A stretch of 5,438 nucleotides of DNA from a virus (Duplodnaviria; Heunggongvirae; Uroviricota; Caudoviricetes): the IMG/VR virus record IMGVR_UViG_2778261417_000007, one strand, 5' to 3'. A program made the translations under genes and the position numbers. Below, piece by piece: positions 478-5,438 of this stretch (position 1 is its first letter; the number at the start of each line of letters is the position of its first letter). A model generated the notes under the pieces. That model made no database searches. It saw only the letters and a program-made list of their open reading frames with translations, and was not told where the DNA came from.

Positions 478-894
478 ATGAATAAAAACGACCTTGAAGC
501 ATTATCTGACACTAGGCTTAATGAGGCCAAATGCTTGCTTGATCATGGCTTTTTTCATGGTGCATATTATCTTTGTGGGTATGCAGTTGAATGTGCATTG
601 AAGGCCTGTATTGCCAAGTCATTTTTACAACATGAGTTTCCAAACAAAAAAGTCGTAAATGATTCATATACTCATGATTTGTCGCAACTTCTCAAAATTG
701 CCAACTTACATCAAATTTTGATTGCTGACGCAAAAAATGATGTTTCGTTGGAGATTAACTGGTCGGTCGTTAAAGACTGGAGCGAGCAATTTAGATACGA
801 CAATAACATAAGTAAAGCTATGGCCGAACAATTGTTTGATGCTGTAGGTGACCAAAATTCTGGAGTTTTGAAATGGGTAAAAGCACACTGGTAA
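478..894 (+). CDS. Hypothetical protein with HEPN-like helical signature (138 aa); first gene of two-gene cargo cassette
   Basis: Intact 138-codon ORF in an AT-rich block. N-terminal segment LNEAKCLLDHGFFHGAYYLCGYAVECALKACIAKS and later SYTHDLSQLLKIA resemble the conserved helices of HEPN-fold proteins (pattern recognition, not a search). Canonical R-x(4-6)-H motif not found. Its stop overlaps the next ORF by 22 nt. Confidence 0.6.
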   Translation: MNKNDLEALSDTRLNEAKCLLDHGFFHGAYYLCGYAVECALKACIAKSFLQHEFPNKKVVNDSYTHDLSQLLKIANLHQILIADAKNDVSLEINWSVVKDWSEQFRYDNNISKAMAEQLFDAVGDQNSGVLKWVKAHW

Positions 895-1274
895 TCGGCA
901 GAGAGTTGACAAAAGATATGGAATTCTCAGGTCAATTTTTATTAAAAAAACTCAAGTTACAGAATTTAACCATTGATGCTGCAATGTGGTTTTATTACCC
1001 AGATCTATCTTGGAGATATATTTTAGTTATCAGTGACTTCTCAGAACGTGGACCGGCAGAAATATATAGAAAAATCAGTGAGATAAATAGAAACAGCATA
1101 TCAAAAAAGTATAAGCCGATACCATTAGAAGCAATTGAGGCTAAGGGGGATTCAGCTTTTATTTATAAAATGTTAAAAGGATTTGCTAGAGTCAACGATG
1201 GTAAAGTTCGCGTTTCTAATTCTATGGTAAATGGTTTAGAAATCGTTGACTGTCTGATCTATGAGTTAAAATAA
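873..1274 (+). CDS. Hypothetical protein (133 aa); second, translationally coupled gene of the cargo cassette
   Basis: ATG at 873 preceded by GGAG (862-865) at 7 nt spacing. Overlaps the upstream ORF by 22 nt in a different frame. No motif I can recognise (no NTase G[SG]...DxD, no obvious HTH). Same AT-rich composition as 478-894. Confidence 0.55.
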   Translation: MGKSTLVIGRELTKDMEFSGQFLLKKLKLQNLTIDAAMWFYYPDLSWRYILVISDFSERGPAEIYRKISEINRNSISKKYKPIPLEAIEAKGDSAFIYKMLKGFARVNDGKVRVSNSMVNGLEIVDCLIYELK

Positions 1275-2985: not shown

Positions 2986-3369
2986 ATGCGTGATATTCAG
3001 ATGGTTCTTGAGCGTTGGGGAGCGTGGGCGGCTAATAATCATGAAGATGTGACCTGGTCGTCCATTGCCGCCGGTTTTAAGGGATTAATTACTTCAAAAG
3101 TAAAATCTCGCCCGCAATGTTGTGACGATGACGCGATGATTATTTGCGGGTGCATGGCCCGTCTGAAAAAGAACAACAGCGATTTGCACGATTTATTAGT
3201 AGATTATTATGTAGTCGGTATGACATTCATGTCACTGGCAGGTAAGCATTGCTGCTCTGATGGTTATATCGGGAAAAGGTTACAGAAGGCTGAGGGCATA
3301 ATTGAAGGGATGTTAATGGCATTAGATATCCGGTTAGAGATGGATATCGTTGTTAATAACTCTAATTAA
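2986..3369 (+). CDS. quuD: Late-gene antiterminator Q (QuuD-like, 127 aa)
   Basis: ATG at 2986 with GGAG (2975-2978) 7 nt upstream; the track ORF from 2971 is a TTG-initiated extension. Protein [24 protein letters not shown]... with Cys clusters (CCDDD...CGC, HCC), consistent with a zinc-binding lambdoid Q. Sits between the nin module and the lysis region, as Q genes do. Confidence 0.85.
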
Positions 3370-3385
3370 TATGCCAGTTGTTTAC

Positions 3386-3420
3386 TAAAAATTATTAAAA
3401 ATGGGGCGTTGCAACGCCCC
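3386..3420 (-). terminator. Rho-independent terminator for minus-strand (porin) transcripts
   Basis: Perfect GC-rich palindrome GGGGCGTTGCAACGCCCC (3403-3420). On the minus strand it is followed by ATTTTTAATAATTTTT (complement of 3386-3402). About 140 nt past the porin stop. Confidence 0.6.
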
Positions 3421-3433
3421 CAAAAATAAAGGG

Positions 3434-3460
3434 TAATATATAACAGAAGGTTTATATAGT
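3434..3460 (+). promoter_or_regulatory. Candidate late promoter (pR'-like) -10 TAATAT with downstream -10-like pause element TATAGT
   Basis: TAATAT (3434-3439) with a possible -35 TTGCAA (3409-3414) at a long 19 bp spacing. A -10-like hexamer TATAGT (3455-3460) would lie in the initially transcribed region, as in sigma70-dependent promoter-proximal pauses used by Q proteins. Hypothesis only. Confidence 0.2.
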
Positions 3461-3486
3461 TAGAAGCAAGGTTGTGCTCCTAAAGG

Positions 3487-3548
3487 AAGTGGCTTGAGGG
3501 AGCCACTTATATGTTGGGGAGGCAAAGCCTCCCGCAACATATCTTTTT
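3487..3548 (+). terminator. Tandem hairpins ending in a plus-strand intrinsic terminator (candidate tR'-like / quuD terminator)
   Basis: Hairpin 1: AAGTGGCT / AGCCACTT (3487-3508, 8 bp stem). Hairpin 2: 15 bp stem with one bulged G (3509-3523 pairing 3527-3542, loop AAA), followed by C then TTTTT (3544-3548). No T-tract on the minus strand after these hairpins. Confidence 0.6.
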
Positions 3549-3558
3549 CGTAATCAGA

Positions 3559-4641
3559 TTAGAACTGGTAAACCAGACCTACAGCAACGATATCATCGGT
3601 AGCAACGCCAGATGCTTTCGTGAAATCGCTCTTATCAATCAGGTTGATTTTGTAATCAACAAAAGTGGACATATTTTTGTTGAAGTAATAGGTTGCACCT
3701 ACATCAATATATTCAACCAGGTCCTGATCACCCCACGCACCCAAGTCTTTTCCTTTAGATTGCAGGTAAGCAACGGACGGACGCAGACCGAAGTCGAACT
3801 GATATTGTGCAACTACTTCGAAGTTTTGTGCTTTGTTGGCAATATGGTTATTACCAAAAACAGTCATGTTCTGGGTTTCAGAATAGGTGGTAGCCAGATA
3901 GATGTTGTTCGCATCATATTTCAGACCAGCTGCCCATACTTCAGCATTTTGACCAGATGCATTCAGGCTGTTGTTACCGTAGATAACCTGATTATTAGTG
4001 CGGTCAGATTTAGCATAGGTTGCACCTACACCGAATCCTTCATACTCATAAGTAGTGGAGAAACCGAAACCATCACCATTAGCTTCAGTTACGTCAGTGC
4101 GGTCATTTTTACCCTGATACTGAGCAGCAAAGTTCAGACCATCAACCAGACCAAAGAAGTCGTTGTTACGATAAGTTGCAACACCAGTGGTGCGACCAGT
4201 CATGAACACATCTGTTTGGGTCCAGGTATCGCCACCGAATTCTGGCAGAACGTCAGTCCACGCACCGATGTCATATGCTACACCGTAGTTACGGCCGTAA
4301 TCGATTGAGCCGTAGTCCCCGAATTTCAGGCCTGCAAATGCAAGACGGGTTTTGTCTTTGGAGGAGCCTTGAGATTCAGCGCGGTTGCCTTTGAATTCAT
4401 ATTCCCACTGACCGAAACCAGTCAGTTGATCGTTGATTTGGGTTTCACCTTTGAAGCCAAGACGGGCATAAGTAGTATCACCATCATCTGCATCATTAGA
4501 GGAGAAGTAGTGCTTGGCATTAACTTTCCCATATAGATCCAGCTTGTTACTGTCTTTATTATAAATTTCAGCTGCCTGAGCAGACATCGCCATCAGTACT
4601 GATGCAGCTACAGCAGAAATTGCCACTGTTAATTTTTTCAT
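3559..4641 (-). CDS. nmpC: General diffusion porin of the OmpC/OmpF/PhoE/NmpC family (NmpC/Lc-like prophage porin, 360 aa precursor)
   Basis: Signal peptide [23 protein letters not shown] then mature start [16 protein letters not shown]. Multiple aromatic-rich beta-strand motifs and a C-terminal ...VGLVYQF with terminal Phe, typical of 16-strand enterobacterial porins. Located between Q and the holin on the opposite strand, as nmpC in DLP12 and lc in phage PA-2 (recollection). Confidence 0.93.
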
Positions 4642-5229
4642 CGTGAGCCCTTTTTTTTGAACTATTATTAAAAAATGATGTCACTGCGCGATAAATATTC
4701 ATCTAATCAATGTGATTATTTCAAGATGTAAGTTTTAGTTTCTCATTTAATTTGTGAAGTAGATCTCTATTTTTATCTGAACTTTTTCTATCGAAACCTA
4801 TTTATGGCTCTTATTTGAACAAAAATAAACCTATTAGCTAATTTATATTAATGGTTGTTATTTATGGAGGTTCTATAATTCGGCAGTTTAATTTAAATCA
4901 ACTAAAAATAACGTCTGAAATTATTTATTGGTTATTTGTTGAGGTTTTCTTATGTATTTGTGGTGGTGTTTTGAACACTCGGTAGCATTCTCATAAATAT
5001 CATTCAGTGGTTTACGTACGTAAAAAATTGGTTATGCTGTTAAGAGTGGTTACTTCGTCACACAGCTTAAACCCGCCGTCGAGCTGGTTTTTCCATTTTT
5101 TGAGTCTCGATATTAGCTGATAACTCAATACCTGAGTTATTCACTGACTCCGAGTCTGTTACGTTTCTGCTTTTTTGCGATACGTTGTATTCCCTCAATT
5201 TACACCCGCTTTGTCTGCGAGGTGGGGTT
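4642..5229. promoter_or_regulatory. AT-rich divergent intergenic region: expected porin promoter (minus strand) and holin upstream signals
   Basis: About 590 bp without a convincing ORF between the divergently oriented porin and holin genes. Plus-strand candidate promoter -35 TTGAAC (4971-4976), 17 bp spacer, -10 TAAATA (4994-4999). Holin RBS GAGGTGGGG at 5219-5227. Exact promoters not resolved. Confidence 0.35.
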
Positions 5230-5438
5230 ATGAAATCCATGGATAAGTTAACAACGGGTGTCGCCTATGGCACCTCAGCAGGTAGTGCCGGTTACTGGTT
5301 TTTACAGCTGCTCGATAAAGTCACGCCCTCACAGTGGGCAGCAATAGGTGTGCTGGGTAGCCTGGTATTTGGCCTGCTGACGTACCTGACAAACCTTTAT
5401 TTCAAGATTAAAGAAGATAAGCGCAAGGCTGCGAGAGG
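5230..5438 (+). CDS. essD: Class II holin / pinholin, phage 21 S-like (EssD-like), 3' end beyond window
   Basis: ATG at 5230 with GAGGTG upstream. Translation [69 protein letters not shown]: two hydrophobic segments, a dual-start MKSM motif and a basic C-terminus, resembling S21/EssD as I recall them. Confidence 0.85.

Follow-up and report, generated by a model that had tools for sequence, protein, structure and literature searches.

The porin gene on the minus strand of the window (by which we mean the whole stretch of 5,438 nucleotides analysed here) is very probably a 'moron' of a lambdoid prophage of the DLP12/PA-2 type: an extra gene, here an intact nmpC/lc-type porin gene, that sits in the phage genome with a promoter and a terminator of its own. 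It would be expressed in the lysogen and would act there partly through the small RNA IpeX encoded in its 3' untranslated region (UTR). The original prediction had proposed an nmpC/lc-like prophage porin, and the protein is indeed 91.7% identical both to K-12 NmpC (with the insertion sequence IS5 removed) and to Lc of phage PA-2. As a module, the feature is already known: it is the well-characterised nmpC/lc–ipeX unit in its usual intact form. The elements of the window to which we shall refer are as follows.

2986-3369, plus strand: quuD, Q-type late antiterminator gene, convergent with the porin gene (Pfam Phage_antitermQ, E = 4e-53; RefSeq annotation of near-identical loci)
3393-3420, minus strand: intrinsic terminator of the porin/IpeX transcript, a stem-loop (3420..3403) followed by the T-run ATTTTTAATAATTTTT (terminator scan and fold)
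3395-3558, minus strand: porin 3' UTR, assigned as the IpeX small-RNA region, with its 3' end deduced from the terminator
3509-3548, plus strand: terminator-like hairpin, stem ATATGTTGGGGAGGC-AAA-GCCTCCCGCAACATAT at 3509-3542, then CTTTTT (plus-strand fold)
3559-4641, minus strand: coding sequence of the nmpC/lc-type porin (360 aa and a stop codon), ATG start
4573-4641, minus strand: signal peptide of 23 codons, ending AQA and followed by AEIYNKD
4642-4690 (upper limit approximate), minus strand: porin 5' UTR, with the ribosome-binding site AAGGG at 4648-4652, read from the sequence
4655-4690, plus strand: deduced promoter of the essD lysis operon, TGAACT ... TGTCAC, with +1 near 4690, back-to-back with the nmpC promoter
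4684-4740 (approximate), minus strand: putative core nmpC promoter region, by identity to K-12
4750-4770, no strand assigned: predicted CRP site 1, ATTTGTGAAGTAGATCTCTAT, a 21-mer identical to that annotated in the PA-2 lc record
5045-5065, no strand assigned: predicted CRP site 2, AGTGGTTACTTCGTCACACAG, likewise a 21-mer identical to that annotated in the PA-2 record
5072-5101, plus strand: second terminator-like element, upstream of essD, CCCGC-CGTCGA-GCTGG followed by TTTTTCCATTTTTT, of putative function
5230-5438 (truncated by the window end), plus strand: essD, holin gene of the phage 21 S type (Pfam Phage_holin_2_1, E = 1.8e-35; annotation of homologous loci)

The gene had been described as encoding a complete 360-aa porin of the OmpC/OmpF family with a signal peptide and a terminal phenylalanine, and on this the open reading frame (ORF), the Pfam Porin_1 match and the C-terminal VYQF all agree. 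In the six-frame ORF list the reading frame begins with ATG and has no internal stops, and it hides no frameshift or premature stop. Residues 29-360 align with the whole of the Pfam profile PF00267 (Porin_1; positions 1-337 of 337, E = 9.8e-154), scoring 512 bits against a curated cut-off of 23.7 bits. The solved structures of OmpC, OmpF, PhoE and OmpK align with the whole of the mature protein, from its first residue to its last (best E = 1e-137), and these end-to-end matches to trimeric porins suggest a 16-stranded beta-barrel that would assemble as a trimer and conduct small solutes. Residues 1-23 are those of PA-2 Lc, where GenBank marks a 69-nt sig_peptide; the cleavage point was judged by sequence, and it is at residue 24 that the mature solved porins begin to align. 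Together with this signal peptide, the protein carries the PEFGGD eyelet motif of loop 3 (L3), residues aligned with K16, R42, R82, D113, E117 and R132 of OmpF (the constriction residues, in OmpF numbering) and a C-terminus, VGLVYQF, that ends in phenylalanine, so that by alignment it bears the signal peptide, eyelet, pore constriction and C-terminal residue of a general diffusion porin. Exactly the same protein is present in NCBI, on 55 contigs and under names that include 'porin OmpD' and 'outer membrane porin protein LC', and it belongs to a 90%-identity cluster with 2741 members; a RefSeq protein of strain FREC5 is 99.7% identical to it. A 265-aa ORF on the plus strand (3511-4308), antisense to the porin gene, and two small ORFs in the spacer upstream of it are without Pfam matches, and were treated as shadow or chance ORFs.

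The setting of the gene is that of a lambdoid prophage. It lies on the minus strand, flanked by quuD (antiterminator) and essD (holin), an arrangement of the DLP12/PA-2 type, and all the other recognised genes of the window are on the plus strand, as the original prediction had it. Those recognised from family matches are a HEPN gene, ybcN, ybcO, rusA, quuD and essD, while ninE and ylcG were placed from the annotation of near-identical loci; the window also contains a 133-codon partner of the HEPN-domain gene, again on the plus strand. The product of quuD is a distant match to the solved structure of Q21. An antisense position within the late region had also been proposed, and more exactly the porin gene stands at the head of that region, between Q and the holin gene. 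Near-identical loci in RefSeq have the same gene order and lie within complete lambda-like prophages. The quuD–porin–essD layout is common to DLP12, PA-2 and all 36 of the phage records that match the porin locus, PA-2 itself being one of these. At the other end of the window, positions 1-77 correspond to an end of IS1.

Of 5426 complete Escherichia coli genomes, 3772 contain matches to the 1.6-kb porin locus and 2510 contain the spacer that separates quuD from the porin gene (that is, the 3' UTR). The K-12 copy had been described as disrupted by IS5, and this is so: nmpC of MG1655 is split by IS5B (9592-10786 of the locus sequence compared), which lies 58 nt before the stop codon and is flanked by a TTAG/CTAA target duplication. 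Excision of IS5 and one copy of the duplication gives an NmpC of 365 aa. The window is continuous at this point. It is 97.5% identical to DLP12 up to 3597 and resumes at 3617 with 89.8% identity, and therefore runs unbroken over the K-12 insertion point, which upholds the statement that no IS-like sequence is visible in this copy; the target tetranucleotide, CTAA in K-12, is here CGAA, a synonymous change. When a 281-nt probe across the K-12 IS5 site was required to be covered in one uninterrupted place, 2304 of the 5426 genomes (c. 42%) had the unbroken junction, from which it follows that an intact nmpC is the common state and K-12 the exception.

Within the coding sequence the resemblance to K-12 is uneven. 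Nucleotides 1-300 are 97-99% identical to those of K-12 nmpC, and the remainder 75-88%, so the allele reads as a mosaic with a K-12-like first 300 nt and a diverged remainder in which most of the divergence falls in surface-loop segments. The difference in length between the two proteins (360 vs. 365 aa) comes from deletions and substitutions in length-variable loop segments, and nearly all amino-acid differences coincide with the regions where OmpC, OmpF, PhoE and OmpN too are of unequal length, which by homology would be the surface loops L4 to L8.

It had also been said that the gene has its own terminator. A minus-strand terminator does exist, formed by the stem at 3420..3403, some 140 nt beyond the hairpin that adjoins the stop codon, but the stop-adjacent hairpin itself is oriented to terminate the plus strand. 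That hairpin (3509-3548), which ends 10 nt short of the porin stop codon, carries a T-run on its plus-strand side and no T-rich stretch on the other; a single bulged base caused the terminator scan to overlook it. It would halt plus-strand transcription coming from quuD, unless antiterminated, before this could enter the porin gene in antisense. The stem of the minus-strand terminator is unchanged in 10 homologues, in which variation is confined to the loop.

Between the porin stop codon and its terminator there is thus a 3' UTR of c. 165 nt (167 nt, at 3395-3561, if the stop codon is counted), which folds into five hairpins with a minimum free energy of -63.6 kcal/mol (z = -8.3). Over 3370-3561 the window is 97.4% identical to the ipeX region of K-12 DLP12, with five differences. 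Two of these fall in the terminator loop and one in a hairpin loop; a fourth is in the spacer next to quuD, and the fifth, within a stem, turns a pair into G-U on the minus strand. IpeX is a 167-nt RNA of DLP12 that is transcribed from the phage porin promoter within the porin transcript and then processed, and that represses OmpC and OmpF (PMC12197685, PMC5069750, PMC3617542); its place is between the stop codon of the phage porin gene and a Rho-independent terminator (PMC12197685). The segment at 3395-3561 agrees with IpeX in length and place and in its identity to DLP12, and on this basis we assign it as ipeX. The assignment draws on the DLP12 identity and the literature and not on an RNA family model: an Rfam scan of the whole window gave no matches at E <= 1. 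Among 10 homologues of the 3' UTR, including one from E. albertii, one of the 47 predicted pairs showed compensatory change, at 89% identity per column, which is too little variation for covariation to be informative. The original prediction had overlooked the IpeX region in the 3' UTR.

The degree of conservation of this region raises the question of whether the RNA, and not the porin, might be the main effector, the selected function being the removal of the OmpC receptor by the IpeX 3' UTR, with the porin protein mainly offsetting the permeability lost. Such a priority of RNA over protein is a possibility to be taken seriously, although we think it doubtful. It would account for the higher identity to K-12 of the 3' UTR than of the distal two-thirds of the coding sequence (97.4% vs. 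75-88%), and for the retention of the 3' UTR in a prophage remnant without quuD (strain A32); moreover, the 3' UTR is specific to the prophage copies of the porin, and repression of OmpC and OmpF by IpeX is documented (PMC5069750, PMC12197685). On the other hand, the coding sequence has stayed open across the 2741-member cluster, the 3' junction is unbroken in the 2304 genomes counted above, and divergence in the loops combined with conservation of barrel and eyelet is the pattern expected of a protein under selection. A dependence of IpeX on transcription from the porin promoter has been reported (PMC12197685), which makes the functions of RNA and protein inseparable by sequence alone.

The intact module that we favour, in which porin and RNA are both produced, presupposes that the gene is transcribed, and the original prediction had judged that it looks expressible. 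This is reasonable in view of the DNA in front of it. The 95 nt before the porin ATG are the K-12 sequence save for one extra base in a homopolymeric A-run, which is also the sole difference within the 5' UTR (4642-4690), where it is an extra A, and when the alignment is extended to 200 nt before the ATG, 188 of its 201 positions agree with K-12. In K-12, the nmpC promoter (PnmpC) is active within the interval -199 to -1 relative to the start codon, with a start site mapped to a G; CRP activates it at two operators, and OmpR, IHF and MprA repress it (PMC11677980). A scan for consensus sigma-70 promoters over 3300-5438 gave no sites, against 5.1 expected in shuffled sequence.

The gene could nevertheless be intact but silent, with H-NS-type silencing, repression by OmpR, IHF and MprA and the action of small RNAs shutting it down under most conditions, in which case the lysogen would have little phenotype. 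The 350 bp upstream of the porin gene are 25-30% G+C, and DNA this low in G+C is often silenced by H-NS. The repressors are those listed for PnmpC in the K-12 work (PMC11677980); nmpC mRNA has been reported as a target of the small RNA RybB (PMC3333887); and the intact nmpC gene of E. coli B is termed 'quiescent' in the title of Prilipov et al. (1998), as cited in PMC3333887. We nevertheless regard silence as unlikely. The near-identical promoter-proximal DNA of K-12 yields a transcript and is the chief source of mRNA for the transposase of the embedded IS5 (PMC11677980). Expression has also been seen for intact homologues. In LF82 lysogens, NmpC of prophage Perceval, the locus of which is 91.8% identical to that of the window, stands c. 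10-fold above the local background (PMC9928086), and CFT073 expresses both its nmpC genes, preferentially at 37 C, at the level of mRNA as well as of protein (PMC12890032). Nor did pairing of RybB and MicC with the 5' part of the window's porin mRNA prove better than chance, the best predicted energies (-16.6 and -17.1 kcal/mol, respectively) being equalled or bettered by 32/500 and 48/500 shuffled controls, which is not significant.

Late transcription of the phage might cross the porin gene in antisense. Primer Pdlp12Fw maps to window positions 4569-4588, and the amplicon that it begins is described as running from -121 to +650 of the regulatory region of the essD operon (PMC7918800 and its supplement), which places the published start of that operon at about window position 4690, on the plus strand. 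Plus-strand terminator-like elements stand on either side of the porin gene, at 3509-3548 and at 5072-5101; in a four-way alignment the stem of the latter has one mismatch in the window and is perfect in K-12. Relatives lacking the porin gene, which might have served to place the Q-dependent late promoter, were sought in the phage collection and none was found, the 3' end of quuD, the spacer, the porin gene and the region upstream of the holin gene always occurring together. If the Q-dependent late promoter lay between quuD and 3509, there would be a short leader RNA perfectly antisense to IpeX, and the Q-modified polymerase would have to cross the whole porin gene in antisense. The porin/IpeX transcript, ending near 3395, and plus-strand RNA from quuD, stopping at 3509-3548 unless antiterminated, would overlap convergently by c. 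150 nt, and it is conceivable, if decidedly improbable, that this forms a switch that shuts off porin and IpeX at the onset of late expression and dampens leaky late transcription in the lysogen.

The last alternative, that the gene is simply the host's own ompC, is refuted by locus context and identity values: the PGAP annotation 'ompC: porin OmpC' on near-identical loci, and a score of 518 bits with the NCBIfam 'porin OmpC' model (cut-off 484), would favour it, but that model is a 'subfamily' one and not an equivalog, identity to K-12 OmpC is 64.3% as against 91.7% to NmpC and Lc, quuD and essD lie on either side within a lambdoid prophage, and there is no micF upstream, no match having been given by the Rfam scan of the window. 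The RefSeq label 'porin OmpC' stems from the subfamily-level model and does not make the gene host ompC. With the NCBIfam equivalog models for PhoE and OmpF, the protein scores under the cut-offs.

How might the nmpC/lc module work in a lysogen? From its close homologues, we suggest that the porin would be transcribed from its own sigma-70 promoter, apart from the late promoter of the phage, with CRP turning this promoter on and OmpR, IHF and MprA turning it down; that the protein would be exported and assembled as a trimeric pore in the outer membrane; and that processing of the 3' UTR would release IpeX, leading to reduced synthesis of host OmpC and OmpF. The net effect would be the replacement of host porins by a phage-encoded one. 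By analogy, such replacement may alter permeability and deprive the cell of OmpC as a phage receptor, giving lysogenic conversion and superinfection exclusion. Work on PA-2, in papers of 1975-2006, is said to have described a switch of porins in the lysogen, loss of the OmpC receptor and exclusion of phages.

Lysogenic conversion has a classic example in prophage porins, which affect the permeability of the outer membrane to antibiotics and nutrients and the set of receptors open to phages and colicins; by way of IpeX, the modules that carry them also reprogramme the porins of the host. With its exact protein already public, and with uninterrupted copies in so large a share of complete E. coli genomes, the porin of the window brings no new biology. 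The value of the analysis is for annotation: the gene should be named nmpC/lc, with an ipeX 3' UTR, and not ompC, and should be treated as potentially expressed.

Among known systems, the K-12 porins OmpC, OmpF, PhoE and OmpN (62-68% identical to the window porin) have in common with it the Pfam family, the fold, the PEFGGD eyelet and the C-terminal YQF, but they are paralogues, encoded at other loci and under other regulation. The porins closest to the window porin outside Escherichia are chromosomal and OmpD-like, from Salmonella, Citrobacter and Enterobacter, with 77-80% protein identity over the full length. Homologues of QuuD and EssD were not found within 3 kb on either side of these OmpD-like loci, nor was an IpeX-like 3' UTR found after the porin genes. 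Several phage and RefSeq records call the prophage porin gene 'OmpD'.

A similar architecture, with a different gene, is seen in phage Lambda_ev087, which has a related Q. There, Q is followed by a plus-strand terminator, an antisense gene for an outer-membrane lipocalin (blc), a further plus-strand terminator and the holin gene. The DNA downstream of Q is unrelated to that of the window, and no sequence homology was found between the two leaders, so the likeness is one of architecture only.

The closest counterparts are the two that give the gene its names. NmpC (b0553) of the cryptic prophage DLP12 (qsr') of K-12 occupies the same position between quuD and essD, in the same orientation. Lc (protein 2) of the lambdoid phage PA-2 (GenBank J02580) is, like the window porin, the product of an intact gene, and PA-2 has both annotated CRP sites, the 3' UTR and the neighbouring genes as in the window; the two are 91.7% identical in DNA across 1861 nt, as they are in protein sequence, and share the 23-aa signal peptide. 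The loop segments of Lc differ from those of the window porin, as do those of K-12 NmpC, and PA-2 is a plaque-forming phage. In K-12, IS5 separates ipeX from the nmpC promoter; in the window, as in PA-2, ipeX is contiguous with an intact porin gene.

The porin allele (3559–4641, minus strand) is a mosaic, with 97–99% identity to K-12 in coding nucleotides 1–300 and 75–88% identity beyond, between flanks that are 97–100% conserved on both sides. The differences cluster in loop segments, a pattern that would fit recombination together with diversifying selection acting on the surface loops. At 3605–3608 the window has CGAA in place of CTAA, the target of IS5 in K-12 nmpC, so the exact IS5 hot-spot of the K-12 gene is absent; the difference is synonymous (codon ACT to ACG).

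In E. coli A32 (locus L090, 1421–2690), a porin gene with an IpeX-type 3′ UTR (IpeX being the small-RNA region) lies beside yedK, ybcM, ybcL and emrE. Neither quuD, the Q-type late antiterminator gene, nor lysis genes are present at this locus, so the porin module has persisted here in a prophage remnant. In phage PhiR68_2, isolated as a virion (L096, 2888–4031), the annotation splits the porin into two overlapping coding sequences, so it is probably frameshifted; judged from this phage, the porin seems to be dispensable for lytic growth. In phage Lambda_ev087, whose Q gene is related, the place taken by the porin in the window holds an antisense gene for the lipocalin Blc (L099, 4150–4674); antisense outer-membrane morons thus seem to have settled repeatedly in the slot directly after Q. 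Phage 434 isolate 434B, as sequenced, has the K-12-type quuD–nmpC::IS5–essD block (L009, 4189–6485), apparently acquired from the cryptic K-12 prophage DLP12. Since 434B carries this block, late gene expression tolerates 2.3 kb of antisense porin and IS5 between Q and the holin gene, essD.

Between the porin and quuD, the two transcripts would end as follows:

3403–3420, minus strand: terminator ending the porin/IpeX transcript
3509–3548, plus strand: terminator-like hairpin facing transcription leaving quuD

From the placement of these two elements, the porin/IpeX transcript and transcription out of quuD would converge and share about 150 nt (3395–3548), a region with strong predicted folding on both strands (z = -8.3 and -5.8).

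Towards the left edge of the window, two further features were found:

1–77: end of an IS1 element
478–1274, plus strand: two overlapping genes of the nin region, for a HEPN protein (138 aa) and a partner (133 aa)

About 5000 E. coli genomes contain IS1 copies that match positions 1–77, with a median of 10 matching sites in each, and the nearest relatives of the remaining window align only from position 78; this edge is therefore part of an IS1 insertion in the prophage, immediately upstream of the HEPN gene. Given this insertion, the prophage may be decaying despite its intact porin. The 138-aa protein has a HEPN domain (Pfam HEPN, E = 3e-6) and a weak PADLOC match to the defence candidate PDC-M28A (E = 1.8e-7), and its partner belongs to phrog_5760 (function unknown) and matched no Pfam family. 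The domain, together with the 22-nt overlap of the genes, suggests a toxin–antitoxin or defence pair. Some 186 complete E. coli genomes have this pair, which DLP12 of K-12 lacks.

On the other side of the porin, the published start of the essD lysis operon, as deduced from primer positions (PMC7918800), would lie near plus-strand position 4690, with TGAACT...TGTCAC upstream of it (region 4655–4740). As this lies within or beside the nmpC 5′ UTR, the porin and lysis promoters would be back-to-back. Further towards essD, the plus-strand hairpin at 5072–5087 has a perfect stem in K-12 (GCGGG), whereas the window, phage PA-2 and strain FREC5 (whose porin is 99.7% identical) have GCTGG; slightly downstream (5160–5175), K-12 has a 16-bp deletion relative to the same three.
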